A stretch of DNA of 64,000 bases from sequence record MZ779063.1; one strand, written 5' to 3'. Below the pieces are notes generated by a model. That model saw nothing but the letters and a program-made list of their open reading frames with translations, did no database searches and had not been told where the DNA came from. A program made the translations under genes and the position numbers. The stretch's first letter is position 1. Each line of letters opens with the position of its first letter. Positions 1 through 64,000 of this stretch are shown piece by piece. This DNA is from Staphylococcus phage vB_SauM-UFV_DC4.

Positions 1-63
1 GTAATAAACAAGCTAAGAAATTATATATAGCATTTTAAAATATAACTAAAGAGAGGTAATTTC

Positions 64-1151: not shown

Positions 1152-1168
1152 ATAAGGAGAAATTAAAA

Positions 1169-1627: not shown

Positions 1628-1646
1628 CTAGGAAGGAATAGAAATA

Positions 1647-2117: not shown

Positions 2118-2172
2118 TTACTATTTAAATATATATTATATAAATGAAGTTAATTAAAATACAGGAGATGAA

Positions 2173-2520: not shown

Positions 2521-2539
2521 ATATAGGAGATGATTAGGA

Positions 2540-3025: not shown

Positions 3026-3026
3026 G

Positions 3027-3320: not shown

Positions 3321-3382
3321 AGATTAAGTATATATTATAATTATGAAGAAAGATATTATCATATATCTTTCTAATAAAATTA

Positions 3383-3694
3383 ATGGAGGAATTTGTTATG
3401 GCAAAATTAAATGAAGAAGTATTAAGAGACTTTCAAGTAAAAACTGAAATTGATGGAGAATTTGAAGTAATGGAATCTGATGAGCTTGGTGTTGATGAAG
3501 CTTATGAAATTGAATTAATTAAAGAATTGGGATTAGATGTCGATTCAAGTGTATTCTCTTATGCAATATCAGAAAAAGATGATGAAGAAAATACGTATAC
3601 TTTAGAATATAGTCATGAAGGCGTTCTATTAACTATTCATGATATCGATTTTGAAAATGGTATTCATGATACTATTTATAAAAATGTAATTTAA
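3383..3694 (+). CDS. Small acidic hypothetical protein.
   Basis: ORF with RBS ggagga; a terminator hairpin follows. Confidence 0.45.
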   Translation: MEEFVMAKLNEEVLRDFQVKTEIDGEFEVMESDELGVDEAYEIELIKELGLDVDSSVFSYAISEKDDEENTYTLEYSHEGVLLTIHDIDFENGIHDTIYKNVI

Positions 3695-3704
3695 TGATTT
3701 AAGT

Positions 3705-3735
3705 ATAGCTGATATCTTTAACGGATATCAGCTAT
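3705..3735 (+). terminator. Rho-independent terminator hairpin (atagctgatatc/gatatcagctat) followed by a T-run.
   Basis: Perfect 12-bp inverted repeat followed by ttatttttatttttttac. Confidence 0.6.
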
Positions 3736-3777
3736 ATTATTTTTATTTTTTTACTTAAAGGAGATGAAAAGGATAAT

Positions 3778-4389
3778 ATGAATTATTTTGAATTGGAATA
3801 TACAGGTTTAATTAATAATAATAAATTAGATAATCTAGTTCTACACAAACAAGAAAATGAAGAAATTGAATCGGGTGTTTTAAATATGGTTTTATTTAAA
3901 TTGTATCTAAAAGAATTCTATAATGATAATATGGATGATAATGATTTATGTAAGAAACTAAAAATGGAAATAAGAAGTATTCATAGTTATAATAATTCAG
4001 AAATTTATATTAATGAAGACTTTGCTGAAATATATGATGGTATTAATCCGAATAATAATATTAAATCAGGAAAAATAAATAAAGATTATGAATATTTATT
4101 TAAATTTATTAAAGATAATATAAATGAAAAAGATTTAAATAATATACATGTGATTAAATTTACAACATTTGAAATAGAGAAATATAAACCTGTTGTGATT
4201 TTTATAAACTCAGATAAACTTAGAATTAAGACCAATAAATCAATTAGTAGATATACATCAACAAATGAATTTGTATTCTATAATATTTCAAGCGAAAGTT
4301 TATATACATTAATGAAAAATACAAATAGAATAAGAAATATAACGGAAAAAGAATATAAAAAAGAATTAGTTAAAAGGAGTTTTTTATAA
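3778..4389 (+). CDS. Paralog-family protein 1 (C-terminus ...TEKEYKKELVKRSFL).
   Basis: RBS aaggagatg. Its stop overlaps the next start (TAATG). Confidence 0.55.
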   Translation: MNYFELEYTGLINNNKLDNLVLHKQENEEIESGVLNMVLFKLYLKEFYNDNMDDNDLCKKLKMEIRSIHSYNNSEIYINEDFAEIYDGINPNNNIKSGKINKDYEYLFKFIKDNINEKDLNNIHVIKFTTFEIEKYKPVVIFINSDKLRIKTNKSISRYTSTNEFVFYNISSESLYTLMKNTNRIRNITEKEYKKELVKRSFL

Positions 4390-4937
4390 TGTATGAAGTT
4401 AATAAAAAATTTAAATATGCTAAAAGAGATAAAGAATTCACATTATTCCACCATAAATCAAAAGAAAAAATAACTGATTCATTTATAATTAATAATTATA
4501 TTTCATATGTATTATATCAATGCTACGAAAGAACACCAGGAAATGCAGAAGTTTGGTTGGAAATTAATGATATAAATAATATAAAAGGTGATTTCTTATT
4601 TAAATTTATGTTTGACAACAGACCTTCTTTTGGTTCTAATTATTTTCCTAAGTGTAAATTAAATATACAAGATAACAGTGATAATAATATTGTAACTATT
4701 GAATTTAGTGATAAATATAAAAGACATAATTTTATTCTAGAAGAAATATCTAAATTTAATAATGTTCATATTAATTTTTATGAAGAAGTATTATTTACTA
4801 ATGAAGATGAAGAATTCAAGTTATTAAAGAATGTATTTAAAACTGATAACATTAAATATTACCAAAATAAAGATTTAATTAGTTATATTTCAGACAAAGA
4901 AGCTAGAAAAATTTTAGTAAAAGAAAACTTTAAATAG
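4389..4937 (+). CDS. Paralog-family protein 2 (C-terminus ...KEARKILVKENFK).
   Basis: Translationally coupled to the previous ORF. Its N-terminal motif IINNYISYVLYQCY parallels IIESYFDYMFNYY in the next ORF. Confidence 0.55.
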   Translation: MYEVNKKFKYAKRDKEFTLFHHKSKEKITDSFIINNYISYVLYQCYERTPGNAEVWLEINDINNIKGDFLFKFMFDNRPSFGSNYFPKCKLNIQDNSDNNIVTIEFSDKYKRHNFILEEISKFNNVHINFYEEVLFTNEDEEFKLLKNVFKTDNIKYYQNKDLISYISDKEARKILVKENFK

Positions 4938-4953
4938 AATAGGGGCAAATAAA

Positions 4954-5487
4954 TTGAATAAATATTTTAAATTTAAATTAAATAATAAAAGTGATTACGA
5001 TGTATTTAAATTTTCAGGAAATGAAGAAGAAATAAGCGATTCTAAAATTATAGAGTCTTATTTTGATTATATGTTTAATTATTATATAAATGAAGCAATA
5101 CCTGACTCCAGTATGATTAATATTGCTGTATTTACTGAAGGTAAAAGAAAAAGATTATTGAGATTTACTATAGATAAACCACCAATTTATATAAAAGAGC
5201 CAGTTAGTACTTTATTTATGAATGAAAATGATGAAGATAAACAAATTAATTTTAAAGAATTTAACGAAATTAAAAAATTTATACACGAAAAGATTATGGA
5301 ATTGAATAAAGGTGAATTTTATATTTATATTGATTATAATTTTGATTATTCTTATAGAATAGATTACGATGATGTATTTGATAAAATATTATTTAATAAA
5401 AATAATCTAAATCTTTATTCATCATTTATTAAAGAAACAGATGAAAATGAATATAAAAATTATCTAGTAAGAGAGAATTTTAAATAA
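4954..5487 (+). CDS. Paralog-family protein 3 (C-terminus ...NEYKNYLVRENFK), TTG start.
   Basis: TTG start with an upstream aggggc RBS; shares the family N- and C-terminal motifs. Confidence 0.5.
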   Translation: MNKYFKFKLNNKSDYDVFKFSGNEEEISDSKIIESYFDYMFNYYINEAIPDSSMINIAVFTEGKRKRLLRFTIDKPPIYIKEPVSTLFMNENDEDKQINFKEFNEIKKFIHEKIMELNKGEFYIYIDYNFDYSYRIDYDDVFDKILFNKNNLNLYSSFIKETDENEYKNYLVRENFK

Positions 5488-5504
5488 GGAAGTGAGACAG
5501 ATAA

Positions 5505-6281
5505 ATGGAATATGTTATGATAAATAAATTATTAACAAAAAATGATTCATCTGAATTAAAAATAAACATGGTTAAACTATATAAAGAGGAAGAAGACTTT
5601 TTCAATTTCTTTTTAAACTTTATTATAGAATATAATTCATATTATATAGGAAATTATAAATACTTTTATAGTATAGATTCATTATCAGATTATAATTCAG
5701 ATTATCAAATAAATGGAAATCCTTATGTGCCATTTGAGGAAGGGATAAAGGTAAATGAAGTCATTCATATTTATAAAAATAAATTATTTAGGAATATAAG
5801 TAAAGATATTGAAAATAGAATAACCGTACTTTATGTAGAAGACAAAGAAGACGATATTTTCTATTATATATTAATATCTAATTACTTTAATAAAAAATTT
5901 AAAAAAGAATATAAAGAAGAACTTCCCGATAAAGAAAAATTGTTAGCTAGACTTATAGTAAGATCCTTTCTAAATGAAAAAATTTTATTAGATTCACATT
6001 CAGAATTTTTAGTTATTAAAGATAAAGAAAAATTGAATAATTTAATTAATAATTTAATGAAAAATCAAAAATACAAAATTTTAAACTTTGATTTCTTAAG
6101 TAATAGGGAATTAAAATATAATGGAGTAATATTTAATACAAATTTATATGATAATAAACTAATCCTGAAGTATTTAAAAGGAATAGACTACAAAGATATT
6201 ATTAATAAAGATAAAGAAAAAATTACGTTTATAAATGAAAAAGGATATAAAAAACTAGCAGTGAAAGAATCATTTAAATAA
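5505..6281 (+). CDS. Paralog-family protein 4 (C-terminus ...KGYKKLAVKESFK).
   Basis: RBS aaggaag; carries the family C-terminal tail. Confidence 0.55.
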   Translation: MEYVMINKLLTKNDSSELKINMVKLYKEEEDFFNFFLNFIIEYNSYYIGNYKYFYSIDSLSDYNSDYQINGNPYVPFEEGIKVNEVIHIYKNKLFRNISKDIENRITVLYVEDKEDDIFYYILISNYFNKKFKKEYKEELPDKEKLLARLIVRSFLNEKILLDSHSEFLVIKDKEKLNNLINNLMKNQKYKILNFDFLSNRELKYNGVIFNTNLYDNKLILKYLKGIDYKDIINKDKEKITFINEKGYKKLAVKESFK

Positions 6282-6359
6282 ATAATAAATATTCTCATCC
6301 ATTCATTATATAATAACTTTTAATTATATAATAATTTTTAGAATGGATGAGATGCTTTT

Positions 6360-7019
6360 ATGAGTAATTATTTATATCGTTTTAACAAAGAGAATGTAAA
6401 TATCTTCTATCATAAAAGGACTAATAATGGTCATAAAATGTTATTTAATAATAGTAATGATAAAGATAGATCTATATACTTAATAAATACTGATGAAGAA
6501 ATCAATAATATGGAACTAGTATCTAAATATATTGCTGGAAAAGTATTTGAAATACTAAACCAAGAAAATATGAAAATAGTACATATGGATTTCTTTAATA
6601 GTAAATTAGAATTCTTTATAAGTAGATCATCCAAGAATAAATATATAATGAATATGTATTTTAGTTTAAAAAGTTATAATGATCTAATAGAAAATGAAAA
6701 AGAATTTATAGATAGTGTTAATGAGCTTAATTTAGACTTTTTAAAATCAGTTTCTTTAGATCAAGACAATAATCATGTATTAGATATGACATTAATATTT
6801 TTAATAGATAAAAATAAAATAGATGAATTTATTAAAAATCTATTTTACATTAATTATGTAAAGATAATAGAATTTATAATAGATACTATATCAGTATATG
6901 CAGATGATTACAAGAAATTTAATGAAGAAATAAATATTCTTTTGGATCATAGAAATTTTGTAGAGGAAATAACATATAAAGAATATAAAAAGATAATGAC
7001 AAAAGAGATGTTTATTTAA
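6360..7019 (+). CDS. Paralog-family protein 5 (C-terminus ...YKEYKKIMTKEMFI).
   Basis: ORF with the family C-terminal tail. Confidence 0.5.
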   Translation: MSNYLYRFNKENVNIFYHKRTNNGHKMLFNNSNDKDRSIYLINTDEEINNMELVSKYIAGKVFEILNQENMKIVHMDFFNSKLEFFISRSSKNKYIMNMYFSLKSYNDLIENEKEFIDSVNELNLDFLKSVSLDQDNNHVLDMTLIFLIDKNKIDEFIKNLFYINYVKIIEFIIDTISVYADDYKKFNEEINILLDHRNFVEEITYKEYKKIMTKEMFI

Positions 7020-7032
7020 GGAGTAATTAACT

Positions 7033-7743
7033 ATGAAGATTTCAGCCAATAAAGAATTATTAGGAAAGAAAGTTATACCTTTAGGTTTTAAACAACTTAA
7101 TAACTTATATAAAGATCATGATTATGTATATTTAAGAATTCCTGAAATATTTAATGTATTTGATAAGTATCAATTTAAAGATGATAAATTTGTATATCTT
7201 AAAACAGAAATAAAACCCAGTACTATTGTAGATTTAATAGATTCTTTATCAAGTGGTTTTAATTGGTTAATAAATGAATATATTTCTAATGATATACTAA
7301 ATATACATTATATAAAGAAAAATTTATTAGACATTTCCAATAGTGAATATAAAACTCTAGAAGAAACAAGATCTCAGTTAGATTTAGAATTAGAATTCAT
7401 AAGTAGTAATGAAAAACAAAGAAAGCAATCTAATATTTTAATAAAGGATATTCATAAAGAAATAAATTATATAAGGAATGAATACACAAAAGTATTCACT
7501 CTTAAGAAAAGTAAAACCAGAAATAATAAACCAATAAAAATAAAAATTAGAAATTTATATGATGAAGATCCAATATCTATATTAAAAATAATATTAGACT
7601 TAGGAGAAGAATATTGTATGAATAGTACTATATTTAACGCATTTACTTATTCATTAATGTTAACAAATAATTTAGATTTCATAGACGAAAAAGAATTTCA
7701 GGATATAGTTAAGAAAGAGAAAGTGAAAAATACTTTCATTTAA
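7033..7743 (+). CDS. Paralog-family protein 6 (C-terminus ...KEKVKNTFI).
   Basis: RBS aaggag; a degenerate family tail; a terminator follows. Confidence 0.5.
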   Translation: MKISANKELLGKKVIPLGFKQLNNLYKDHDYVYLRIPEIFNVFDKYQFKDDKFVYLKTEIKPSTIVDLIDSLSSGFNWLINEYISNDILNIHYIKKNLLDISNSEYKTLEETRSQLDLELEFISSNEKQRKQSNILIKDIHKEINYIRNEYTKVFTLKKSKTRNNKPIKIKIRNLYDEDPISILKIILDLGEEYCMNSTIFNAFTYSLMLTNNLDFIDEKEFQDIVKKEKVKNTFI

Positions 7744-7748
7744 AACAT

Positions 7749-7805
7749 TATTCATATAGTTTGAGGAAATTTTCCTTAAGCTATATGAATTATTTTATTT
7801 TTTTT
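7749..7805 (+). terminator. Nested-palindrome terminator (attcatatag ... ctatatgaat with an inner AGGAAA/TTTCCT) plus a T-run.
   Basis: A 10-bp perfect inverted repeat flanks an inner 6-bp inverted repeat, followed by tattttattttttttc. Confidence 0.55.
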
Positions 7806-7939
7806 CTAAAAATATAAACTAATTTATATTAATAATTTTTATAATGTATCATTCACTTAGTCGCAAATATTTATTTATTTTAAGAACATAAATTTTATAT
7901 CAAATAATATAGAATTTTTAAAAAGGAGAATTTAATTTT

Positions 7940-8503
7940 ATGGAAAAATATGATAAATTAACTGAAGAATTAGAAGCTTTATATGAGCAATCTCAAGAAG
8001 AAGCTCTAGAAGAACAGTTCGAAAGCATTATCGAATCAACTGATGAAGATAAAGCAGAAGAAGTTGAAGATAAAGATTCTAAAGAAGATTCAGACGAAGA
8101 AGAAACATCTGTTGAAGAACAATTTAACAGTATCTTAGAATCAGAAGATGAAGAATCTGATGAGGAAGAAGATGACGAAGATTCAGAAGAAGAACCGGTT
8201 GAAGAATCTGATGAGGAAGATTCAGAAGACGATTCAGAAGATGATGAAGATTCTTTAGAAGAAGAATTAAATCGTTTATTTGAAGAAAATGAAGACCCAG
8301 AAATGGATGTCGAAAAGCAAACTACAAAAGCTAATGACATGAACTCAAAAAAATCATCTGACTCTACTGAACATCCTGAAGAAGATGTGAAAAAAATCAC
8401 TTCAGAAGATGAAGACGAAGAAGAAGATGCTGAAGATGACGAAGAAGAATCTACTAATGAAGATGAATCATTAGAAGAATCATTAGATCGTATCTTTGGT
8501 TAA
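7940..8503 (+). CDS. Hyper-acidic Asp/Glu/Ser-rich protein (about 45% D+E) with internal EEQF-S-I-ES-DE repeats; candidate DNA-mimic, anti-restriction or scaffold-like protein.
   Basis: RBS aaaggag. The translation carries the repeated motifs EEQFESIIESTDED, EEQFNSILESEDEE, EEELNRLFEENEDPE and EESLDRIFG. Confidence 0.6.
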   Translation: MEKYDKLTEELEALYEQSQEEALEEQFESIIESTDEDKAEEVEDKDSKEDSDEEETSVEEQFNSILESEDEESDEEEDDEDSEEEPVEESDEEDSEDDSEDDEDSLEEELNRLFEENEDPEMDVEKQTTKANDMNSKKSSDSTEHPEEDVKKITSEDEDEEEDAEDDEEESTNEDESLEESLDRIFG

Positions 8504-49410: not shown

Positions 49411-52400
49411 ATGGCAGACTTTATGTATCTCCATCCTTCTGTACAAACACAAATCAACTCTTATCAAAATAATTACCCTACAGCTGAAGGTCCTGTAACA
49501 TTATTTGCTGCAGACACTTTTGAAAAAGGTAAAGATGGAGTTATTGATTTTGTAGGTACTGAAGAAGAATTTATTTTTAAATATGGTGAACCAAACTATA
49601 CGAAATACGGTCAAGCTGCTTATAACCTCGTGAACTGGTTACGTTCTGGTGGTCAAGCTTATGTATTACGTGTATTACCTAAAAATGCAACTTACTCTCA
49701 TGCTATATTAAACGTACAAAGTAGAGTACAAAAAGATGGTAAAAAAGTTTTAACGGATGCAAATGAATTAGTTAAAATTGATGATGTTAAAATTCGTCCA
49801 ACAATTGCATTTGTTAAGAAAAATAATAGAAATATTGAAGAATTAGTTAACGAAATCACTTTAGATCGTGGTAATGAACAAACAGTAGACGGTTATAATA
49901 ATAACTTCTTACTTTTAGCTTATCCAAATGGTCGTGGTGAATCTTATAATGATTTAGGTATTCGTTTAACTTTAAATACTTCATATGACACTAGTGGTCG
50001 TACTGAACGTGTTTATAACTTAGAAGTACTTGAATTTGACGAATTTAGTAATGTTAATGTAATTGATGGCCCATTCTTAGTTACATTTGATCCAGATTCA
50101 ATTTCAGATACTGGTGAATCAATGTTCATCGAAGAGGTTGTTAATCGTTATTCTAAATACGTTAACATCAAATTTAATCTAGAAAACTTCCAAAATCTAG
50201 CTAAAGAAATTAATCCTAATGTACATCCTGCAAGCATTGATGTTATTTCTGGTAAATCTAAAGTTAGTATTGATGGAACTCCTGAGACTTTCTACTCAGA
50301 AAAAACTAAACAATCTGAAGATATCCATATCACTTTACACCGTTACAATAATAAAGGTGTACCAGTAACTATTAGTGGTAACCCTGTATTGAATAAACCT
50401 GATTTTAACGATCCAGTTGAAAATGCATTAATTTCATTAGACAATGGTATGCGTGAAAAAACTTTCGTTACAGATTCAGATCGTCTTTCTTACATGAGAG
50501 ATCAATACAAAACTTTACGTTCTGATAATTTTACAGAATTTAAATCATTATTAAATAAAATTATTGTACCGGGTAATGGTTTATTTGAAGATGATGCAGG
50601 TAGCTTACCTAAAACTATTAAAGATAATTTAGTTTCTGCAAAATTAACACAAGAAGATGTAACTGCAGATATCAATGATGAAGAAGCAGTTGAAGAAGAA
50701 TTAGCTGGAAAATTCAAACCTTCTGAAATTAATTTCGGTGGTAAACCTGCTGGAGCAGCTGAACGTTTAGTTCAAGATTATAACACTTATTTTGAAGATT
50801 CAAATGAAGAAAATCTTTCTGCAGTACTTTCAGGTACAGAAGAAATTGGTTCTTTATTATTAAACGAATTCTTAGATAACGGTAATAAACTTAACGCTGC
50901 TTACGAATTAGTTTATAAATCTAATTCAGGTATTTCTTCAAATCCTAAATATCAAGCTGATGTTAAAGAATTACGTGATGTATTGGCTCAAAAAGACCAA
51001 ATCCGTATCTTTGGTATTCAACATAAATCTAATATCTTAGATATTACAAATGATATTGCTGAATTACGTATTGGTATGAAATCAGTTACTAACTTAGAAG
51101 GTATGTCTAAAGTATTAAATGATACTGAAACAGAATTACGCTATGTAATTGACAACTTAATGCCTGCTGTTCGTGAAGGACTTCCTAAAGAAGCAGTTGA
51201 CTTTATTAACACTGTTCCTGATGGTGATGATGAAGATACAGAACGTGATTTAGTTTCTCCAGAAGCTATGTTAAACTCATTAGCTGACAAACAAATGTTA
51301 GTTGACGATATTAACTTAGGATTAATGGAAGACAATGCTGCTAACCGTGAAGAAGTATTCGTAGCTTGTAATGAAATCGCTAACCAATTAGTTGATTTAA
51401 TTAACAGAGCTGTTTCAGTAGCTTCTGTATATAAAGTTGCTCGTGCGGTACGTATTGCAGCTAATACAATCTATTATGATATTTCTATCTTCCGTAAAAA
51501 TATTGATGAAATGATTCAAACTCGTTCTAACTATACAGAAAGAGATATTACATTGAATGCTCATCAAAATATTGAATTAGCTGTTGCTAACTTGAATAAA
51601 GCTAACTCTAAATACTTCAATACTAATCTTATTGATGTATCTAGTCCAGTTAAATTCTTATTCGGTTCTGATGGTGACTTCTCTTATGCTGAAGACATTT
51701 CATATAAAGATCGTAAAAACTCTGTTAACCGTGAATTAATTAAAGCTTATAAAGGTTTAATTGATGAAGAAATTACAAACACTAAAGCTTATCCATTTGA
51801 TGTTGTTCTTGATGCTCGTTATTCTAACGAAGTTAAGTTCGCTATCTCTGAATTAGCTAAAAATGTTCGTAAAGACTTTGTATTCTTAGCTGATACGGTT
51901 ACTGATCGTTACCCAGTTAGTCCTGAAGATGCAATTAGATGGAGAAAAGAAGAATTTGCTGTTTCTTCTGAGTATACAGCTATTTACTCTCAAGATTTAA
52001 CTTACTATGATGAGTACACTGGTAGAGACATTCGTTTCACACCAACTTATCGTTTAGCTTCAATGATTCCTTATCAAGCTGTTAACTCTGGTTTACACTT
52101 CCCAATTGCAGGACCTAGACGTGGACTAGTTGAAGGACATAAAGCTTTATCTTGGGCTCCTAATGAACCTTATAAAGAAAAACTTTATACTTCTAAAATT
52201 AACTACATTGAAAAAGATATTGATAGAACTAAATTTGGTGCACAAATGACTTCTATTAAATCTGATGGTCCATTATCTAACTTGAACAATATCTTTACAT
52301 TAAATCAAATTAAACGTGATGCAGAAACTCTTGTTTCTGATTACCAATTTGAATTAAATGATGATGAAACTCGTTCAATTATGGGTACAGAGTTGAATGC

Positions 52401-52563
52401 TTATCTTACTCGTTATGTATCTAACCGTAGCTGTGAAACTATTCAAGCTGAAGTTAGTGCAGATGAATACGATAAATCTCAACGTATTGTACGTGTTAAA
52501 ATTTCTGTTAAATTCAACAATGTTATTGAACGTATCTTCATTGACATTAATGTTGAAAAATAA
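49411..52563 (+). CDS. Contractile tail sheath protein, unusually large at 1050 aa.
   Basis: The N-terminal YGQAAYNLVNWLRSGGQAYVLRVLP aligns with the T4 gp18 block YFMSAMNFLQYGNDLRVVRAV. The C-terminus carries VRVKISVKF. Codon bias is of the highly-expressed type. Confidence 0.7.
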   Translation: MADFMYLHPSVQTQINSYQNNYPTAEGPVTLFAADTFEKGKDGVIDFVGTEEEFIFKYGEPNYTKYGQAAYNLVNWLRSGGQAYVLRVLPKNATYSHAILNVQSRVQKDGKKVLTDANELVKIDDVKIRPTIAFVKKNNRNIEELVNEITLDRGNEQTVDGYNNNFLLLAYPNGRGESYNDLGIRLTLNTSYDTSGRTERVYNLEVLEFDEFSNVNVIDGPFLVTFDPDSISDTGESMFIEEVVNRYSKYVNIKFNLENFQNLAKEINPNVHPASIDVISGKSKVSIDGTPETFYSEKTKQSEDIHITLHRYNNKGVPVTISGNPVLNKPDFNDPVENALISLDNGMREKTFVTDSDRLSYMRDQYKTLRSDNFTEFKSLLNKIIVPGNGLFEDDAGSLPKTIKDNLVSAKLTQEDVTADINDEEAVEEELAGKFKPSEINFGGKPAGAAERLVQDYNTYFEDSNEENLSAVLSGTEEIGSLLLNEFLDNGNKLNAAYELVYKSNSGISSNPKYQADVKELRDVLAQKDQIRIFGIQHKSNILDITNDIAELRIGMKSVTNLEGMSKVLNDTETELRYVIDNLMPAVREGLPKEAVDFINTVPDGDDEDTERDLVSPEAMLNSLADKQMLVDDINLGLMEDNAANREEVFVACNEIANQLVDLINRAVSVASVYKVARAVRIAANTIYYDISIFRKNIDEMIQTRSNYTERDITLNAHQNIELAVANLNKANSKYFNTNLIDVSSPVKFLFGSDGDFSYAEDISYKDRKNSVNRELIKAYKGLIDEEITNTKAYPFDVVLDARYSNEVKFAISELAKNVRKDFVFLADTVTDRYPVSPEDAIRWRKEEFAVSSEYTAIYSQDLTYYDEYTGRDIRFTPTYRLASMIPYQAVNSGLHFPIAGPRRGLVEGHKALSWAPNEPYKEKLYTSKINYIEKDIDRTKFGAQMTSIKSDGPLSNLNNIFTLNQIKRDAETLVSDYQFELNDDETRSIMGTELNAYLTRYVSNRSCETIQAEVSADEYDKSQRIVRVKISVKFNNVIERIFIDINVEK

Positions 52564-52716: not shown

Positions 52717-53523
52717 ATGATTTTACCAAGTAAAAATCAGCGTGTGTTTGATAATAACATCGCTAAGAACAAGTGGTTCTATAATGGACATATGAATCTT
52801 CAAACTCTTGAGTTTGATCCATTCGTAACTGGTTATTCATTCATAGTATGGACTAAGATTCCTTCTTGGGTTGAAAAACAATTCCCTGGTTTTAAAGCTA
52901 TGACTCAAAAGAACTTTAAATCATTCCAAGGTTTAGAAAACATTGAAATGACTACAAACGATTATATGCATACGTTTAACGGTAATAACTATCGTACAGC
53001 TGCTAGTATTACAAAAGGAAACACTGGTTTCCAAATGACTCACCAAGAATTCTCTGGTAGTCCAATTAAAAATATGTATCAATACTGGGTATCTGGTATC
53101 CGTGATCCTCGTACTGGTATTGCAACTTATCCTAAAATTCATAATTTAGAATATGCTGCTAAAAACCATACAGGTGAATTATTATATATTCAAACTCGTC
53201 CAGATGCTAATAATACATCTAAAAATAATATTGAATTCGCTGCTTATTACACTGCAGTAATGCCTACTCGTATTTCTCTTGATCACCATAACTACACTAT
53301 GGAAACTCATGAAGAAGCACAAATTGAGCAAGACTTTGCAGGTAATATGGAAATTTCAGCACGTGTAAATGACTTTGCTAAGTCTAAACTTAATGAAATT
53401 TACAGCTTCACTGAACAAGGTATGTTTGATCCATCTGCACCTAAAACTGCTGGAGATAACTTATCTGATTTCGACTATAATAAAGGTGGAATCACTGGTT
53501 CAGGTAACGGAGATCTTAAATAA
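52717..53523 (+). CDS. Putative tail tube protein.
   Basis: Position immediately after the sheath gene; strong RBS aaaaggag; Arg is encoded by CGT. Confidence 0.45.
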   Translation: MILPSKNQRVFDNNIAKNKWFYNGHMNLQTLEFDPFVTGYSFIVWTKIPSWVEKQFPGFKAMTQKNFKSFQGLENIEMTTNDYMHTFNGNNYRTAASITKGNTGFQMTHQEFSGSPIKNMYQYWVSGIRDPRTGIATYPKIHNLEYAAKNHTGELLYIQTRPDANNTSKNNIEFAAYYTAVMPTRISLDHHNYTMETHEEAQIEQDFAGNMEISARVNDFAKSKLNEIYSFTEQGMFDPSAPKTAGDNLSDFDYNKGGITGSGNGDLK

Positions 53524-55781: not shown

Positions 55782-57242
55782 TTATGATAATGCACTTCCA
55801 ATAGCACTGTTAGGATGAGGGTTTGCTTGAGATTTATAACCGTAAATAGTATCATCTATTTGTTGTTTAAATACTCTTCCTTTTAACACTTGCATACTTC
55901 TTGAATACTGATTTTGCATATTAATTTGAGCTTTATCTATAATTGATAGTTGATCTCTTCTAATACCTGCTAAACAATCAATATAAGAAATTAAACCTGT
56001 ATTAAATTTCATACGTTGGAATGATTTTGATGCCATTAAGTTAGGGTACATATCTCTTACATTTAGTGAAACTGTTATTTCTCTAGGGAAACCATCTGCT
56101 GTCCATGTACCTTCTTCTCCACGAACTATATTCATTGATGTTATAATACCTGTATGACATTCAAATCTACCAGGACAGTTTGCTCTAACAATGAATGGTT
56201 GTTTATATGAGAAAATAGAATCTTGTAAAGGTAAAGCTAATACCAATAATGACATGAACGGTAAATATACATTTTCAAAAATAGATTGAGGATCTCCATA
56301 CGCACTATAGAATTTAAATTCTAAGTTATAAGTACGGTCAAAAGTTGAGTTCATCCATACATCAGGATAATACATTGATGCTCCATCTAAATTTTCCATA
56401 AAGTTACCAACTATACCACCTAATACTGGCATATTTGCAACCATATCATTAATGCTATCTTTAATAGATCTTGTAATTTTACCTAAAATAGAAGCTCCTC
56501 CAATACGAGCCATTTCTTTTTCTTCACGTATTTCTTGGTTTTTATTATTAATCTGAGAAGCTATATCAGATTGATTATACTCATGCATTGCTGATTCAGA
56601 TACACTAGTAGCTTTATCCGCATAATAAGCTAAACCATAGTTTTTGTCATCTAAAGATCCACCTAAATCAAATGATCCTTTTAATCCCATAGATGCATGT
56701 AATTGACTTCCCATGGTTTGTACGTATTTATAATATTCACTCATTTTAGGTTCAAAACTAACCATACGTCCATCTTTAGTATTACCTATACCAACTAATC
56801 CAGCTGTAGTATTTGCCAATCTATCTAAACCTTCTCCAAAACTCCATAATTTACCTTCACCCGGTTTACCAAATAGTTTACCGTTCAATTTAGGCATACC
56901 TGGCATTATAAATACTAAAGGTAAGTCTAATTCAAATGTTCTTTTATATATTCTTCTATTAGGGTCATCTAAACTAGAGTAGTACATAGGCATTCCAAAT
57001 ACATCTAGTTCACCTTTAACATTTCTCAATTTAGTTTTATCGGAAGCACCATATTCAGAAATATTACGAGTATTACCTGTAGCATCTTTAAATACACCTA
57101 AATCATTCTGACTTGGATCATATTCTTGGAAATCATAATCACCTTTAGTTTCATCAGGTTTAGGTATTAAAGCAATATCGTCATCACTAATATCTAAAGG
57201 TTTCGTACTACCTTTTTCATTTTTATCTTTTTCTTCTGCCAA
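55782..57242 (-). CDS. Distal-tail or baseplate protein (486 aa); Dit-like by position.
   Basis: Immediately downstream of the tape-measure gene. Confidence 0.35.
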   Translation of the reverse strand: MAEEKDKNEKGSTKPLDISDDDIALIPKPDETKGDYDFQEYDPSQNDLGVFKDATGNTRNISEYGASDKTKLRNVKGELDVFGMPMYYSSLDDPNRRIYKRTFELDLPLVFIMPGMPKLNGKLFGKPGEGKLWSFGEGLDRLANTTAGLVGIGNTKDGRMVSFEPKMSEYYKYVQTMGSQLHASMGLKGSFDLGGSLDDKNYGLAYYADKATSVSESAMHEYNQSDIASQINNKNQEIREEKEMARIGGASILGKITRSIKDSINDMVANMPVLGGIVGNFMENLDGASMYYPDVWMNSTFDRTYNLEFKFYSAYGDPQSIFENVYLPFMSLLVLALPLQDSIFSYKQPFIVRANCPGRFECHTGIITSMNIVRGEEGTWTADGFPREITVSLNVRDMYPNLMASKSFQRMKFNTGLISYIDCLAGIRRDQLSIIDKAQINMQNQYSRSMQVLKGRVFKQQIDDTIYGYKSQANPHPNSAIGSALS

Positions 57243-57373: not shown

Positions 57374-60300
57374 TTATTTACCTGAAAATACTGGTATAGC
57401 AGATCTCACGTCAATATTGAATTGATCTCCATAAGCTCTATTAATAGCTTCTTGAAGATCAGAATCTCCTTGTGAAGGTCCATTATTATTACCTGGATTG
57501 ATAATAATAGTACTTCCGTTTCCATTATTACCACCTGTACCAGGATTATATGGATCATTAGGATTAACAATGACATTACCATTATTATTACCATTATTGC
57601 CATTAGCTCCATTGTTTCCATTTTGTCCATTATTTCCAGTATTGCCGTTGCTACCATTATTTCCATTTGCACCGTTAATAATATCTGGATTATTTTGTAA
57701 ATTATCTTTAATGATTCTATCAATTTCTTTATTAATTTCTTTGATAATTACATTACCTTTAGAATCAACTAAGTCACCTTTATTATTGATAGTCGTGTTA
57801 TTAAAGATATTATCACCTTTATTAATAGTAGTGTTATTACCTTTAAATGACATTTTTCTAAGTTGATCTAACATCTTAGCTGTATTTTTATCAATATTAC
57901 TTGTATGCTTAGTAATTTCATCTAAATCCATACGTTTTTGCTTATCAACTTTCATAGGTCCATTTTTGTAAGATACTGTAGAATTGTTATAATTATTGGT
58001 AATATTATAAATATTTCTTACAGTATTATTATCGCCTTGAATTGTTTGATGAGTAGTAGAATTGTTGGTTGTAGTTCCTGGTGAAGTATAGTTATTATTA
58101 ACTATAGTAGAATTAGTATTTCCACCATTATTAATTACAGTACTTCCGCCAGAAGAACTTCCTGATCCTTGTTGTTGAGATTGATTTGGCATTGATGAAG
58201 ATGACCCATCTTGACCATTTGCACCAGATTGACCATCAGAACCACTAGATCCTGATGAACCTGAAGAACCAGAGTCTCCTGATTCCCCATCTTCTCCATC
58301 AGACCCTGATGAACCTGATTCAGATTTCTTCTTACCAGCTTCAGATTTAAGCTTTTCTTGTTGTTCTTGGTCTATTTTTTTGGCTTCTTCGTAATCAATA
58401 CCATATATTTGAGCGTAACGTTTCATTAAACGGTCATTTAATGCTTCTTGTTCTTCTTCATCCATACGGTTATCGTCACGTCCAGTAATGGATCCGTACC
58501 AAGTACCATTTTTGAAACTATATTCTGAAGCTCCTGGTGAATCTCCTGATTCTGAACTTTCATCACTTGAGCTTCCGCTATCAGAACCTCCTTCACCATA
58601 TCTCATATAACCATCAATTCCCCATTTAGGGTTTTTATATTTATTAGCACTGTTAATAACAACACCATCAACACCATTAGCCTCTACTTGTTTACCTCCA
58701 CCAATGTACATTGTAACGTGTTCTATATTATCACATAAAATAATGTCACCTGGTTTAAGGTCTTTGGGGCTTTTAGCTTTAATTTTCTTAAAAGGCGTAT
58801 CTCCATTCCAGAATGAATGAGTAGTGGCGTTCTTATCCATATCTAAACCAGCTTTTACATAAGCTCTAGCTATCAAACTAGAACAGTCAAAAGAATTAGC
58901 TCCTTGTCTGTTAGGTTGTGAATATTTTGCACCAACCTGTTTCTTAGCCCATGCAACAGCTTTATCAATTTTGGCTTTTTGACTTCCGCCACCGCCACCG
59001 CCTCTTTGTATAGGTGGATTACCTTTAATTATTCCTGTTCTACGTGAGCTTTTGTTTTTTCCTGATGTAGATGAAACCATGTTAGAAAATTTACTAATAT
59101 CATTTGTATCAGCTATAACTGAACCGGCCCCACCTCCGCCAGCTCCTCCACCTTTTTTCTTAGTAGATTTTTTATCAGAACCACTGAATTTTTTGATAAA
59201 AGCATTACCAGAAGAAATACGTGACCCTAAAGCAGGAACACCGGCTCTTTCATATTTACTTACCCAAGAAGCAGCTGCTTGTTCTACTGTTTTAGTAGTT
59301 TTAAGGTGAGATAAGGCAGCACTTTCTGATCCACTTAATTCTTTCCATAAATAATCCAATTGTAAGTCTAAATCAGACCATTTTTTACCTTTTTCTTTAG
59401 CATATTTCATTAAACCTTGTCTACGAGTATTATCCCATTGAGCAATACCAATACCATAACCAGAAATAGCACTATTAGCTTTTGCTTCATCAAATTTGGC
59501 ATCTCCTTGAACACGATCAGCTTTCATTCCAGATTCATGTGCAAAGTTACCTAAAACACCAGCAACTTGTTCATTAGAAAGTCCTTTATCTTTAAGGAAA
59601 TTCCAAATTTTCTCTGCACCTTCACCTTCAATTCCAGCTGCATCACTTCCTGAAGATGATGCTGAACTTGATGAAGATGATCCAGATCCGGCCATAAATC
59701 CAGCCATGATATCATTCATCATACCGCCTAATTTATCGAACCAATCACCAATAGTATTAACTACTTCTCCTCCTGGTTCATTTATATCTAGTTTAGATTT
59801 TTTCTTTTTCTTCTTACTTAATAAAGAATAGAAAGGTGACATACGCATCATAGTCTCTGCTAATTTCTTAGGTGTTTTCTTAAGTTTACTCATGAGATTT
59901 TTAGGCATTAATTTATTCATTTGATGACCAATTCTACCCATTACAGATAATGGAGAATCTTTCATAGCTCCATCTACATCTTTCTTGATAGAATCTCTAG
60001 TTTTTCCTGCTGACTCTTCTACTTGTTTTTTAGCATCTTTACTAGCTTTATCTGACATGCCTTGCATTTCTGCTATTTCTTTTTTAGCTCTATCAGATGC
60101 TTCGCCTTCAATTCCTTCTTGATATGAACTTAATTCTTCTTTACTAGCTTCAGTCATTTCTTTACTCATATTTCCCATTTCTTCTTCATGACTAGAGAAT
60201 TTATCTTTTAACCATCCCCAACCAGATTTAATTAATCCAGTTCCTCCTTGAAGAAGCATAGAAGTCATACCAGTTAAATTACTTAAGCCTTTACCAGCTA

Positions 60301-63262
60301 ATGCCAAAGGAGCCATCAATAACATAGAAGCTCCGCCAACAACTTTTTTAATCAATCCTCCAAAGCCACTTGATTTTTCTTCCATAGCCATATCAGTTTG
60401 ATCTCCAAAGCTTTTAGCCATACCTGTAGTTTTCTGAACCATATTCATACCTAAACCAAATGCCGGTTTTACAATTGATTTATATAATCCCATTCCAGCT
60501 AATCCCAATAAAGGAGTAGAAGCTAATAATGGATTATCTTTAATAAAACCACCTATAATTGAAGATTTATCTAAAGAACCATTCATTTTAGTATCAACTG
60601 AAGGATCAACTGCAAAATTTTCTCCACCAGGTTGAGTTGAATCTAATTTTTCTTGTTCTTTTTTAGTCTTAGAAGGGTGATCATTGAATCCAATAATACT
60701 ACCTAATGTCTTAATTGGGTGTTTTAAAGATTCAATAGGGTTGGCTATAGTTCTAATAATGTCTGGGCCAGCTAATGCTAATGATGCAATTTGTCCAACT
60801 ACAGGAATAGCATTTACACCAACACGAGCACCTACTTTAGCTCCTGCTTTAAGTAATCCTTTACCTATAGCTTTTTTAGCACCTTTTCCAGCAGCCATTT
60901 TAGCAGCTCTAGCTTTAAGTTTCCCTTTAAGTCTACTACCTGCACCGGCCATTAAAGCACCACCGGCAGCAAATTTACCAGTTAAAGAACCACCCATACT
61001 AGTTATTTTACCACCTAATTTAGTATTAGATAATTTACCTATTTTTTCTTTAACAAGGTCTTTACCTTTATTTTTATATTTATCAAATTTTTCTTTGACA
61101 TGTTTATTACTATCAATAAGATCTTGAACGTCTCCTACTTTATCTGCAAAATCTTTATCATCTGAAGTGTCAGAAGCTTTCGTTTGTCCATTTTCTAAAG
61201 TTTGTTCATTAGGAATAATAGTAGATCTATTATCCTCATCATTAATATTATCATTTCTTCTTGTACTATCAGATTGTCTACTTTGATTTGGACTAGAAGA
61301 TGTTGTAGAAGTATTTTTATTTAAAGTTTGTTCTCTAGGATCTATTTCTCTAGAAACATTTTCATTAGGTTGATTTACATCACTAATTATACCACTTGAA
61401 TTTTTATCACTAGAATTACTACTATATCTTTGTTCAGGTATTTTATTATTTATTCTAGATACAATTTGTTTAATTTCACTTATATCTTTATTAACGATAT
61501 TAAAGCTAATATTATCATATACTGTATCTTTATTAGTGCTAAGAATACCGCTTCTATTTTCATTATTTAATTTAGAAGTAATATTTTTAGAAATACCTTT
61601 TCTTTGATTTTCATCATTAAGAGCATTTATAGAACTACTAGATAATCTCTTCTTAATATCTTTAGATTCTTTATTTAATTGCATTCTAGTTTTAGTTAAA
61701 CTAGTTTTAGCTTCTTTATCATTAAATAATTTATCTAGAAGAATATTAAATGGATCATTAGGATCATTTGATTTAATTTGATCAAGTTCATTGCTTTTAT
61801 TAATATTTTTAGAAATGATTTCTTTAATCTTAGATGTAGCTTTATTTTTATTATCTTCATTACTGAAAAGATCAATACCCATTTCAGAAGCTATATTTTC
61901 AAATTCTTTAGTAAAACTAGATTCTTTGATAGTTTTATTAACTTTTTCTTCTATATCATCTTTAATAGACTTGGAAGTTTTAAATGAACCTGAATCATAG
62001 TCATAATGAATTTCTTGTCCATCTTCTGAAGTTAAACCAACTATTTTAGATAGATAACCAGGTATAACTGTATTAAGCGTATTATGAGTTTCCACATCAA
62101 AAGCAACTTTTTGATGTCTGTCTTTTCTGTTAGCAGTTGATATACCACCAGTTACACTATCAAATATTTTGTCAATTAATTTACTTTTACCTGATTTAAC
62201 ATCTTCAAGAAGATCATCTCTTCTTTTATCTCTTTTTCTTTGTTTATCACCATTATCATTATCACTAAAAGGACTAAATTTCTTATTAGCAAATTTACCA
62301 ACAGCTTTTTCTATGAAAGTATTTTCATTATTAAGAAAATCAAAAGCTTTACCTTTAGCTACATCAACTAAACCTAAACTTTTAATACCTTGTTTTTTAG
62401 AACCAATAACTTCTTTAAGTAATTCAGTTCCTTGTTTTTTAATAAAGTCTTTAGCTTTATCTTTGAATCCTTCTTCTTGAGATCCTTCTAATATACTTGA
62501 TAAAGTTATATTAGATAAGAATAGATCTTCTAATGAATTACTATTTTTAATTTCAGATATATTCTTAATTTTAGTATTCTGTCTAATAGCATTACTAGTT
62601 TGAATTAAACCATTTAAGTTTTGGAACATACTTTCTCTAATACTATCGTTAGCTTCTCTCATTAAATTAAGATTATCAATCATAGAAGTAAATCCGGTAG
62701 TATTTATTTGAGAAAGATTAGATACAGAAGAAGTTAATAGAGCTGTAGATTTAGCAGAAGAACCACCATCATTAATAACTGTTGTAGAAGATACTATTTT
62801 AGATTTATTATCATCTTCTTCATCAAAGTCATCAAATTCAAAATCTCCATCTAAAGAATCATCTGTGTCAGAATCCATATCTGAAAAACTATCATCAAAA
62901 CCAAAATCTTCAAAATCACCACCGATATCCATACCCATGTTATTGAAGTCTTTTAGTGATCCTTTATCTTGGATAGTTTCTCCAGTTTTAAAGGTATTTT
63001 TAGTAGATTCTAAAGCTTCTTTAGATAAATCTTTAGTAGATTCACTTATCTTTTGTAATTGTTTTTTCTTTTTATTCTTTAATTCTTTGACAGCTTTTAA
63101 TGGATTATTTTGATCCATCATACGTTTCATGTCATTAGACTTCATTTTATTTAAATTTTTGTTAAATTCAATATCTATATATTTTCTAGAAGATTTAGAG
63201 GAGGAGTTATTTCTAAACTCCTTCTCTATCTTGCTAGTGTTAAATTTCTTATCTCTAGCCAA
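57374..63262 (-). CDS. Tail tape-measure protein (1962 aa) with an embedded lysozyme-like domain, an NlpC/P60-CHAP-like cysteine peptidase domain, and a C-terminal Gly/Asn collagen-like repeat.
   Basis: Gly/Ala-rich amphipathic TM-like segments GGKITSMGGSLTGKFAAGGALMAGAG are typical of TMPs. The lysozyme-like block is GNFAHESGMKADRVQGD...GYGIGIAQWDNTRRQ. The peptidase block has NSFDCSSLIARAY and IEHVTMYIGG with a Cys...His pair. Confidence 0.7.
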   Translation of the reverse strand: MARDKKFNTSKIEKEFRNNSSSKSSRKYIDIEFNKNLNKMKSNDMKRMMDQNNPLKAVKELKNKKKKQLQKISESTKDLSKEALESTKNTFKTGETIQDKGSLKDFNNMGMDIGGDFEDFGFDDSFSDMDSDTDDSLDGDFEFDDFDEEDDNKSKIVSSTTVINDGGSSAKSTALLTSSVSNLSQINTTGFTSMIDNLNLMREANDSIRESMFQNLNGLIQTSNAIRQNTKIKNISEIKNSNSLEDLFLSNITLSSILEGSQEEGFKDKAKDFIKKQGTELLKEVIGSKKQGIKSLGLVDVAKGKAFDFLNNENTFIEKAVGKFANKKFSPFSDNDNGDKQRKRDKRRDDLLEDVKSGKSKLIDKIFDSVTGGISTANRKDRHQKVAFDVETHNTLNTVIPGYLSKIVGLTSEDGQEIHYDYDSGSFKTSKSIKDDIEEKVNKTIKESSFTKEFENIASEMGIDLFSNEDNKNKATSKIKEIISKNINKSNELDQIKSNDPNDPFNILLDKLFNDKEAKTSLTKTRMQLNKESKDIKKRLSSSSINALNDENQRKGISKNITSKLNNENRSGILSTNKDTVYDNISFNIVNKDISEIKQIVSRINNKIPEQRYSSNSSDKNSSGIISDVNQPNENVSREIDPREQTLNKNTSTTSSSPNQSRQSDSTRRNDNINDEDNRSTIIPNEQTLENGQTKASDTSDDKDFADKVGDVQDLIDSNKHVKEKFDKYKNKGKDLVKEKIGKLSNTKLGGKITSMGGSLTGKFAAGGALMAGAGSRLKGKLKARAAKMAAGKGAKKAIGKGLLKAGAKVGARVGVNAIPVVGQIASLALAGPDIIRTIANPIESLKHPIKTLGSIIGFNDHPSKTKKEQEKLDSTQPGGENFAVDPSVDTKMNGSLDKSSIIGGFIKDNPLLASTPLLGLAGMGLYKSIVKPAFGLGMNMVQKTTGMAKSFGDQTDMAMEEKSSGFGGLIKKVVGGASMLLMAPLALAGKGLSNLTGMTSMLLQGGTGLIKSGWGWLKDKFSSHEEEMGNMSKEMTEASKEELSSYQEGIEGEASDRAKKEIAEMQGMSDKASKDAKKQVEESAGKTRDSIKKDVDGAMKDSPLSVMGRIGHQMNKLMPKNLMSKLKKTPKKLAETMMRMSPFYSLLSKKKKKKSKLDINEPGGEVVNTIGDWFDKLGGMMNDIMAGFMAGSGSSSSSSASSSGSDAAGIEGEGAEKIWNFLKDKGLSNEQVAGVLGNFAHESGMKADRVQGDAKFDEAKANSAISGYGIGIAQWDNTRRQGLMKYAKEKGKKWSDLDLQLDYLWKELSGSESAALSHLKTTKTVEQAAASWVSKYERAGVPALGSRISSGNAFIKKFSGSDKKSTKKKGGGAGGGGAGSVIADTNDISKFSNMVSSTSGKNKSSRRTGIIKGNPPIQRGGGGGGSQKAKIDKAVAWAKKQVGAKYSQPNRQGANSFDCSSLIARAYVKAGLDMDKNATTHSFWNGDTPFKKIKAKSPKDLKPGDIILCDNIEHVTMYIGGGKQVEANGVDGVVINSANKYKNPKWGIDGYMRYGEGGSDSGSSSDESSESGDSPGASEYSFKNGTWYGSITGRDDNRMDEEEQEALNDRLMKRYAQIYGIDYEEAKKIDQEQQEKLKSEAGKKKSESGSSGSDGEDGESGDSGSSGSSGSSGSDGQSGANGQDGSSSSMPNQSQQQGSGSSSGGSTVINNGGNTNSTIVNNNYTSPGTTTNNSTTHQTIQGDNNTVRNIYNITNNYNNSTVSYKNGPMKVDKQKRMDLDEITKHTSNIDKNTAKMLDQLRKMSFKGNNTTINKGDNIFNNTTINNKGDLVDSKGNVIIKEINKEIDRIIKDNLQNNPDIINGANGNNGSNGNTGNNGQNGNNGANGNNGNNNGNVIVNPNDPYNPGTGGNNGNGSTIIINPGNNNGPSQGDSDLQEAINRAYGDQFNIDVRSAIPVFSGK
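57480..57700 (-). repeat. Tandem roughly 9-bp (ccattatt[a/t]) repeats encoding (G-N-N/G-Q-N) collagen-like triplets at the tape-measure C-terminus.
   Basis: Periodic ccattattaccattattgccattagctccattgtttccattttgtcc seen directly in the sequence. Confidence 0.55.
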
Positions 63263-63285
63263 TTATTAGTTCCACCTCCTGCTAT

Positions 63286-64000
63286 CTATTTCAATTCTTC
63301 TAATAAACGGTCTAATTCTTTAGTAGATGCTAATGTATTTTTATCTATATTAGCTAACATTCTTACTAAATCATCTGAATACCATAATTTTTCATAATCA
63401 TAAGTATAACCAGAGTTACCATTTTCAATTTTAGAATTTTTATGATTGTTTACAATTTTATTATAATGGTTAGTTACTCGGTTTTTACCTTTTATAAATT
63501 CTTTATTCACATTTTCATTATTAATGACATTACTTTGTCCATTTTGATAATTGTTATTAACTGTTTTAGTATTTTTACTACCTTGATTGTTAACAGCATT
63601 ATTACCTCTATTAATATTAGAAAAACCACTATTAGCTAATGTTGGTAATTGGAATACCGGAGGATTTCCGATATTCTTATTATTAGTTATTTGAGATCTT
63701 GATTCTTGTGGTTTAGATGGCGATGCTGAAGAATCAGAACTATCTGAAGATTCTTCATCTCCAGAATCTTCACTTCCAGATCCTGATGAACCTGATTCAG
63801 ATTTCTTCTTACCGGCTTCAGATTTTTTCTTTTCTTGTTGTTCTTGATCGATCTTTTTAGCTTCTTCATAGTCAATACCGTATATCTGAGCATAACGTTT
63901 CATTAATCTATCATTTAATTCTTCTTGCTCGTCTTCATCCATACGGTTATCATCACGACCAGTTATTGAACCATACCAAGTACCATTTTTGAAACTATAT
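63286..64000 (-). CDS. C-terminal part of a tape-measure-paralogous lysin-module gene. The true start lies beyond the window end; the Met at 63942 is internal.
   Basis: The reading frame stays open to nt 64000 and encodes ...YSFKNGTWYGSITGRDDNRMDEDEQEELNDRLMKRYAQIYGIDYEEAKK, nearly identical to the tape-measure segment that follows its peptidase domain. Confidence 0.55.
   Translation of the reverse strand, partial: YSFKNGTWYGSITGRDDNRMDEDEQEELNDRLMKRYAQIYGIDYEEAKKIDQEQQEKKKSEAGKKKSESGSSGSGSEDSGDEESSDSSDSSASPSKPQESRSQITNNKNIGNPPVFQLPTLANSGFSNINRGNNAVNNQGSKNTKTVNNNYQNGQSNVINNENVNKEFIKGKNRVTNHYNKIVNNHKNSKIENGNSGYTYDYEKLWYSDDLVRMLANIDKNTLASTKELDRLLEELK

Follow-up and report, generated by a model that had tools for sequence, protein, structure and literature searches.

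In the 64,000-nucleotide (nt) stretch of the Staphylococcus phage vB_SauM-UFV_DC4 (DC4) genome analyzed here (record MZ779063.1; "the window"), the minus-strand gene at 57374..63262 (gene B) and its upstream neighbor, which runs out of the window at nt 64000 (gene A), are probably tandem paralogs of the tape-measure class that arose from one ancestor and carry different enzyme cassettes. In this account, which we favor while leaving considerable room for doubt, a direct repeat shared by the two genes is a protein module kept by purifying selection, the module and other collinear islands of similarity would be assembly contacts, and tail contraction would deliver the enzymes. Gene A beyond nt 64000 was read from the relatives PALS_2 and Madawaska, which are 96-98% identical. 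Phage AR9 is the nearest well-studied relative of the Staphylococcus AR9-like jumbo myophages considered here, and its gp203 is compared with both genes below. The features that carry the argument are as follows.

57374..63262, minus strand: gene B (UFVDC4_00259), tape-measure-class tail protein; open reading frame (ORF) of 1962 amino acids (aa), TTG start at 63262
61973..62116, minus strand: island 1, aa ~383-430, KVAFDVETHNTLNTVIPGYLSK...YDYDSGSFKTSK; common to gene A and AR9 gp203
60695..60766, minus strand: island 2, aa 833-856, PDIIRTIANPIESLKHPIKTLGSI; common to gene A, directly after the hydrophobic segment at aa 814-836
59186..59617, minus strand: lysozyme-like domain (Phage_lysozyme2, PF18013), aa 1216-1359; Pfam E 7e-36
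58622..58963, minus strand: NlpC/P60 cysteine peptidase domain, aa ~1434-1547; Pfam PF00877 and PDB 8er5
58289..58537, minus strand: B copy of the module, aa 1576-1658, PGASEYSFKNGTWYGSITGRDDNRMDEEEQEALNDRLMKRYAQIYGIDYEEAKKIDQEQQEKLKSEAGKKKSESGS; from the repeat, alignment and blastn in 9 genomes
57863..58120, minus strand: C-terminal Asn-rich region with an NNNY...NIDKNT motif, collinear with the gene A C-terminus; hhalign and BLASTP
63286..64000, minus strand: 3' end of gene A; open frame from 63999 to the stop at 63286-63288, the rest beyond the window
63766..64000, minus strand: A copy of the module, cut by the window edge; from the repeat, alignment, open frame and blastn
L001:14916-20894 and L002:14904-20882 (PALS_2, minus strand): full-length gene A orthologs with Peptidase_M23
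L002:14904-20882 (PALS_2, minus strand), aa ~1565-1725, and the same in L001: SGNH domain of gene A, 160 aa, between M23 and the shared module

Both enzyme domains of gene B were well supported by profile matches and by invariant residues. The PF18013 match covered profile positions 3-140 of 140 at 123.9 bits (gathering cutoff 28.2), and E1243-S1244 within an 'AHESG' motif were invariant in six orthologs, with E1243 presumably the catalytic residue. For the second domain, PF00877 (NLPC_P60) matched aa 1455-1541 (E 5e-11; 42.9 bits vs a gathering cutoff of 23), the NlpC/P60 structure 8er5 matched aa 1434-1544 (E 5.8e-7), CwlO also matched, and the putative catalytic residues Cys1460 (FDCSSL) and His1515 (IEHVTMY) were invariant in the same number of orthologs. 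A match to Peptidase_C92, a permuted papain-like amidase, at aa 1427-1486 overlapped this region and fell far under its cutoff. Gly/Ser linkers were observed between the domains, and Kyte-Doolittle maxima were located at aa 814-836 and 970-988. A megablast search with 57374-64000 returned nine phage records only, all of them Staphylococcus jumbo myophages, with the best from PALS_2 (96.6%), S6, Madawaska and MarsHill; the gene B orthologs of these four phages are 95-97% identical. These observations bear out the first-pass annotation of this DNA, which had proposed a tape-measure gene with a lysozyme-like domain at roughly nt 59170-59650 and a Cys/His NlpC-P60/CHAP-like peptidase at roughly nt 58560-58990, separated by Ser/Gly linkers; both mapped domains lie within these limits.

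At the window edge the gene A frame reads YSFKNGTWYGSITGRDDNRMDE... and continues open to its stop, as the same annotation had described for a separate minus-strand frame. Gene A was intact in 9 of 9 relatives (about 1974-2021 aa) and located 21-24 nt upstream of gene B, the exception being PALS_2, where gene B is annotated from an internal ATG. The possibility raised earlier that the upstream ORF is a pseudogene or has no catalytic domain does not hold in the relatives, where a real paralog carries an M23 peptidase domain and an SGNH domain resembling that of OatA. Peptidase_M23 (PF01551) was matched at aa 1319-1409 of the orthologs (E 7e-23; 81.2 and 76.9 bits vs a cutoff of 28.7), and the residues of its zinc motifs HxxxD and HxH (H1320, D1324, H1401, H1403) were invariant in six of them.

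The SGNH domain of gene A matched the extracytoplasmic domain of S. aureus OatA (PDB 6WN9/6VJP) over its full length (phmmer E 3.7e-10), and the Pfam Lipase_GDSL family matched it at 17.9 bits, under the cutoff of 23.6. PALS_2 and Madawaska have the GDS and GTNG blocks as well as the catalytic His, and the Asp of block V (DxxH) was not aligned. LY01, SA1, Machias and AH12 carry other residues in place of the Ser (GDE/GDD) and of the His (Met/Leu). The two catalytic residues are intact only in the DC4/PALS_2/Madawaska clade, and any esterase role would therefore be clade-specific. The domain may be an esterase, a transferase or a binding domain, and each of these assignments is putative.

Similarity between the two proteins, as detected by BLASTP and by profile-profile comparison, was collinear and limited to four short islands, outside which the sequences have diverged nearly past recognition. 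Island 1 forms the core of an N-terminal stretch with 24% identity over 480 aa and is a conservation peak among the gene B orthologs; its motifs read KVAFDVETH..VIPGYLSK..YDYDSGSF. Island 2 carries the motif PDIIxTIxxPIESLKHPIKTLGS (BLASTP, 47% over 86 aa) and was also detected as DNA, with 68 nt at 78-90% identity in every genome (blastn). The sequence conserved between the paralogs at this island is PDIIRTIANPIESLKHPIKTLGS. Across the module and the C-terminus, hhalign aligned 225 columns of A and B with 52% identity and an E of 1.7e-61. The order of parts is the same in both proteins, namely a helical/hydrophobic body, an enzyme cassette, the module and a C-terminal motif. Between islands 2 and 3 lie the cassettes themselves, whose folds are unrelated, with M23 and SGNH in A vs lysozyme and NlpC/P60 in B. 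The simplest reading of these comparisons is that A and B are old tandem paralogs from one ancestral tape-measure gene, which is single in AR9 and was duplicated on the staphylococcal branch, and that the enzymes embedded in them are interchangeable cassettes. In agreement with this, the closest relatives of the enzyme domains of both A and B sit in tape-measure-annotated proteins of other staphylococcal phages.

The genomic position of the pair is consistent with a tape-measure role. Gene B lies in the tail morphogenesis region, close to the genes for the sheath (49411-52563) and for a conserved virion protein (52717-53523), and it stands directly upstream of a homolog of AR9 gp204 (window gene 55782-57242), as AR9 gp203 does of gp204. 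In hhalign comparisons with gp203, the match of gene B was confined to island 1 (70 columns, 39%, E 1.5e-6, probability 90%), and gene A also matched there (E 3.9e-5). Tape measures follow a rule of about 0.15 nm per residue of extended helix. By this rule all 1962 aa would span 294 nm and the ~1600 non-globular residues ~240 nm, compared with a tail of 233-237 nm; this rough arithmetic fits both paralogs equally. Helical content and transmembrane domains have been described for both proteins by Korn et al. (MarsHill preprint).

Published annotations divide the two roles differently. In the DC4 gene table (PMC10638138) the 1990-aa product at 255286..261258 (-) is the 'tail tape measure protein' and the 1962-aa product at 249374..255262 (-) the 'tail lysozyme', with the sheath at 241411..244563; subtracting 192000 from the published coordinates gives 57374..63262, 49411..52563 and the upstream stop at 63286 in our window, which very probably corresponds to DC4 nt 192001-256000. 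Korn et al. reported 'two potential tape measure proteins', of which the one with PF18013 and PF00877 was named tail lysin. The tape-measure label in published annotations is thus on gene A, and gene B goes by 'tail lysozyme' or 'tail lysin'. Taken at face value, this would make gene A alone the length-determining tape measure and gene B a separate tail-tip or ejected lysin with fragments of tape-measure ancestry, and the collagen-like runs and longer C-terminus of B, absent from A, agree with such a division. However, it is B and not A that occupies the AR9 tape-measure position, and B also matches gp203 slightly better. The two proteins are alike in length class and have hydrophobic segments and islands in common, and the SA1 authors called both genes tape measures. 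We therefore regard a tape-measure role confined to gene A as rather unlikely.

The repeat that drew attention to this locus (58289-58523 and 63766-64000) is a direct repeat of 235 nt, ungapped and 87% identical. The first-pass annotation had placed it at 85-90% identity with coordinates that imply an offset of 5480 nt, and on alignment it was found at an offset of 5477 nt. In the relatives the repeat measures 215-255 nt at 83-90% identity (blastn, 9 genomes, E down to 1e-90), and therefore about 15-20 nt of it are expected beyond nt 64000, giving a B copy of 58289-58537. The encoded module in B is laid out as PGASE-YSFKNGTWYGSITG-...-two helices-KKKSESGS, with Ser/Gly linkers on both sides of it in both proteins. 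Single-sequence AlphaFold2 of the module alone predicted a beta-hairpin followed by a helical hairpin, with a mean predicted local distance difference test score (pLDDT) of 72 and 81-93 in the helices. When the NlpC/P60 domain and the module were modeled as one sequence the mean pLDDT was 41, and the peptidase part was unusable. In comparisons of orthologs, no 40-aa stretch of B was more conserved than the module (0.98), which ranked second in A (0.94), and the enzyme domains were less conserved (0.6-0.8). It encodes no catalytic motif or catalytic domain and for this reason is not a lysin cassette, so that the first-pass description of the repeat as one falls away; nor do the actual cassettes of A and B share a fold.

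We then considered why the DNA of the two copies is so alike. In the window, 73 of the 78 codons (94%) code for the same residue in A and B. The proportion of synonymous differences (pS) was 0.59, with a synonymous distance (dS) of about 1.15, a nonsynonymous distance (dN) of 0.036 and a dN/dS of about 0.03, which places the synonymous sites near saturation; orthologs from different clades are equally divergent (pS 0.56-0.59). The expected identity was calculated by drawing synonymous codons independently from the strongly A/T-biased usage of the genome. As similarity the match is far beyond chance, but its nucleotide identity is only slightly above this codon-bias expectation, with 87.2% observed vs 82.5 +/- 2.2% expected from codon usage alone and 53 of 73 identical codons vs 47.8 expected (P = 0.10). 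About 20 of the approximately 25 A/B differences were fixed, separating every A copy from every B copy across five close genomes. With the synonymous sites near saturation, most of the A/B differences fixed and conservation among orthologs at or near its peak here, the repeat mainly reflects strong constraint at the protein level on an old module common to both genes, and not recent DNA exchange. A recent duplication is not supported either, given the saturation and the fixed differences.

A reading in which the repeat is recently duplicated or exchanged DNA, held alike by ongoing gene conversion between A and B and predisposing the locus to deletion, was weighed against the same data. Some sites do behave as it predicts. 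Over the last ~40 nt of the module (codons 59-72), A and B are 92% identical within PALS_2 and 85% within Machias vs 61-64% between the orthologs of those clades, and lineage-specific 3'-end sequences are common to both paralogs (KSEAGKKKSESGS vs KAKAGKEATESGSSSGSSSS). Gene B of PALS_2 has three clustered A-type substitutions at this end. Quartet sites grouped by genome for the window vs Machias (7 against 2) and for the window vs SA1 (9 against 5), and A/B pS in Machias was only 0.355. The window quartets with LY01, however, grouped by paralog (7 against 1), module codons 0-59 had no within-genome excess, the excess of identical codons was not significant, and A/B pS in the window was as high as that of orthologs of different clades. 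Added to the fixed differences and to the presence of both genes intact in 10 of 10 genomes, this makes ongoing conversion of the repeat as a whole improbable. At the 3' end of the module, where few sites are involved, the pattern is suggestive of local concerted evolution or gene conversion. A 6-nt difference between the A copies of the window and PALS_2 at this end was not counted as conversion by B, as a two-codon Ser/Gly indel fits equally.

Exchange was also observed at an orthologous locus. Gene A of LY01 (L003:13564-19509, minus strand) is a clear mosaic when compared with PALS_2 (L002) and Machias (L005): it is PALS_2-like from nt 1 to ~3760 and again from ~5400, with informative sites at roughly 10:1, and Machias-like at nt ~3760-5380, which corresponds to the M23 and SGNH cassette. 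No comparable mosaic was found in gene B. The right-hand junction of the mosaic lies inside the module, and on this sequence pattern the module is taken to have been a homology arm through which phages exchanged an enzyme cassette. This exchange was between orthologous copies and not between A and B. Earlier ideas of an exchanged cassette and of a recombination hot spot thus survive in part. A cassette swap between lineages, with its crossover within the module, and a concerted stretch of ~40 nt are on record, but the swap was not between A and B, deletion or fusion of A and B via the direct repeat was seen in 0 of 10 genomes, and the longest exact A/B runs in the repeat, which otherwise speak for conversion, are only 32 and 26 nt.

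In long-tailed phages such as lambda (gpH) and T5 (pb2), the tape measure is held at the tip or hub of the tail by its C-terminal part, and embedded hydrolases are the first to come out. The constrained module and the other islands may be contacts needed in the tail lumen or baseplate hub, made either between the two proteins or to one tail or baseplate partner that both bind; a shared assembly contact is proposed because the islands are strictly co-conserved. The tail would take up both paralogs, with the enzyme cassettes lying close to its distal tip, and sheath contraction would extrude both proteins. The hydrophobic segments would then enter the membrane, while the lysozyme-like domain of B would act on the glycan strand, its NlpC/P60 domain on the stem peptide and the M23 domain of A on the pentaglycine bridge. 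The SGNH domain of A might strip or recognize the 6-O-acetyl groups installed by OatA. Together the four activities could open the thick, O-acetylated and pentaglycine-bridged staphylococcal wall.

Two other roles for the module were examined. One is that of a cell-wall-binding domain aiming the upstream enzyme cassettes at staphylococcal peptidoglycan or teichoic acid, in the manner of endolysin C-terminal domains. That the module immediately follows the enzyme domains in both proteins, separated from them by a flexible linker, that it has an aromatic beta-hairpin (YSFKNGTWYG) and that it is confined to staphylococcal phages would all suit such a role. On the other hand, it resembles none of SH3b, LysM and GW and matches no Pfam or PDB entry, a helical hairpin dense in charged residues makes up two-thirds of it, and virion-associated lysins usually have no binding domains according to reviews as quoted in the DC4 paper (PMC10638138). 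Binding domains also usually track the host, and the module is nearly invariant across S. aureus and S. lentus phages, which leaves wall binding very unlikely. The tape measures of lambda and T5 are cleaved and their C-terminal part is released. A comparable maturation or processing site in the module, cut by the same protease or autoproteolytically and conserved for protease recognition, has in its favor the flanking Ser/Gly linkers in both proteins and an invariant start, G-A-S-E|Y, which may resemble the S/A/G-X-E motif of phiKZ-type prohead proteases, but it is given equally little credence, as seventy nearly invariant residues go far beyond the need of a cleavage site, prohead proteases work in heads and not in tails, and the SA1 and DC4 virion data contain no peptide of A or B.

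Several observations weigh against tandem tape-measure paralogs with a docking module. The 'tail tape measure' label of AR9 gp203 is an annotation and not experimentally proven, and no PHROG or Pfam tape-measure family was matched by A or B outside the enzyme domains. Neither protein was listed in virion liquid chromatography-mass spectrometry of SA1 or DC4, where sheath and capsid proteins were, although coverage was low and tape measures are low-copy. The full gene A is known from relatives that are 96-98% identical and not from the window. Searches with the module returned only noise in Pfam and PDB sequences, no Foldseek match to its fold in the PDB (best E 2.0) and no homolog outside the phage clade in two very large protein libraries, where the matches within the clade were one 122-aa fragment and one 1973-aa representative among 1.84 billion; a docking role is something that we infer purely. 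Two chains of ~2000 residues would also have to fit into one tail lumen. An extension of the model, in which A and B co-assemble via the islands into a heteromeric tape measure with four wall-modifying activities, an OatA-derived de-O-acetylase unlocks the partner lysozyme and the module is a 'socket' for cassette swaps, is in our view distinctly unlikely.

Further features of gene B and its surroundings were noted along the minus strand.

63263..63285, minus strand: A/B spacer of 23 nt with the Shine-Dalgarno sequence AGGAGGTGG (63272-63280), 9 nt before the gene B TTG
58199..58315, minus strand: G-X-Y run 1, Ser/Gly-rich, aa 1650-1688, 13 triplets; marginal Pfam Collagen match and regular expression
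57584..57673, minus strand: G-X-Y run 2, a 9-nt tandem repeat, aa 1864-1893, GANGNNGSNGNTGNNGQNGNNGANGNNGNN, 10 triplets; repeat and regular expression

The ribosome-binding site before gene B is annotated identically in Madawaska and MarsHill. TTG is the start codon of both giant genes, with GTG used for gene A in the Machias clade. In the PALS_2 record (PALS_2_172, L002:9001-14748) gene B begins at an internal ATG and is 1915 aa long, which is probably a start-site misannotation because the TTG start behind AGGAGG is conserved and is used in Madawaska, MarsHill, S6 and the window. The 9-nt tandem repeat of run 2 codes for GANGNNGSNGNT... The Pfam Collagen family (PF01391) reached 29.6 bits in gene B vs a cutoff of 27.2, and the triplets are Ser/Asn-rich, of low complexity and without Pro; the runs could serve in trimerization or be nothing more than low-complexity sequence. 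Directly downstream of gene B, no pattern of an intrinsic terminator was detected. Horizontally acquired cassettes were considered as a cause of the higher G+C content at 58-60 kb (36%) and rejected, because G+C at third codon positions was uniformly low (0.10-0.21) and the excess came from Gly, Ala and Ser codons. Elsewhere in the window, the small plus-strand ORFs of the first 8 kb (1-8000) have a G+C content of 19-23% compared with 25-36% in the remainder, with a strong positive GC skew.

The gp204 homolog at 55782-57242, a virion protein (phrog_20401) whose conservation extends over phiKZ-like jumbo phages from many hosts (195 records), is uninterrupted in the window. In Machias (L005:5841-8958) its counterpart is divided by the insertion of an ORF annotated as 'transposase', for which the annotators note a relation to CasX/TnpB. 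A 1436-aa protein near the gp204 homolog of Listeria phage LPJP1 was also inspected and found to be unrelated.

Much of the framework presented here was in the literature. A gene pair with lysozyme and NlpC/P60 domains in one member and a peptidase of its own in the neighbor is already known for DC4 and its relatives, and this core finding changes little; the added detail is modest and incremental. The DC4 paper (PMC10638138) gives peptidase_M23, and that alone, for 00260 (gene A), and the text of the MarsHill preprint uses none of the terms M23, NlpC and lysozyme. Neither the DC4 nor the MarsHill paper describes the module and islands common to A and B, an OatA-like SGNH domain in A, the single-gene ancestry seen in AR9 or the cassette swap in LY01. 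These details could guide the engineering of virion-associated lysins against S. aureus.

Among the closest known systems is AR9 gp203 (YP_009283108; L011:8996-14773, plus strand). It resembles gene B in size class (1925 vs 1962 aa), has the same gp204-homolog neighbor, carries island 1 at the same relative position and has a peptidoglycan hydrolase embedded at about 75-85% of its length, as in the Staphylococcus pair. It differs in being a single gene where A and B form a tandem pair, and its enzyme is a lysozyme of the type VI secretion system VgrG3-like_C family (PF21277, E 2e-35), unlike the enzymes of A and B; neither the 80-aa module nor island 2 was detected in gp203. The SGNH domain of gene A compares with that of S. 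aureus OatA (6VJP/6WN9) as set out above, a match in full length with GDS and GTNG and with the D-x-x-H Asp unaligned. Other staphylococcal tail proteins with SGNH domains are already known, e.g. Gp44 of phi11. The 6-O-acetyl groups installed by OatA make S. aureus peptidoglycan resistant to lysozyme (Bera et al. 2005, as cited in PMC4876445), and these acetyl groups also contribute to phi11 adsorption. The tape measures of phi12/phiSLT-type siphophages embed an M23 domain 45% identical to that of gene A, and the Kayvirus tape-measure or tail-associated lysin embeds a lysozyme-like domain about 42% identical to that of gene B. Each of those phages has one such protein, of about 1000-2000 aa and without similarity outside the enzyme domain, whereas here four domains are spread over two paralogs.

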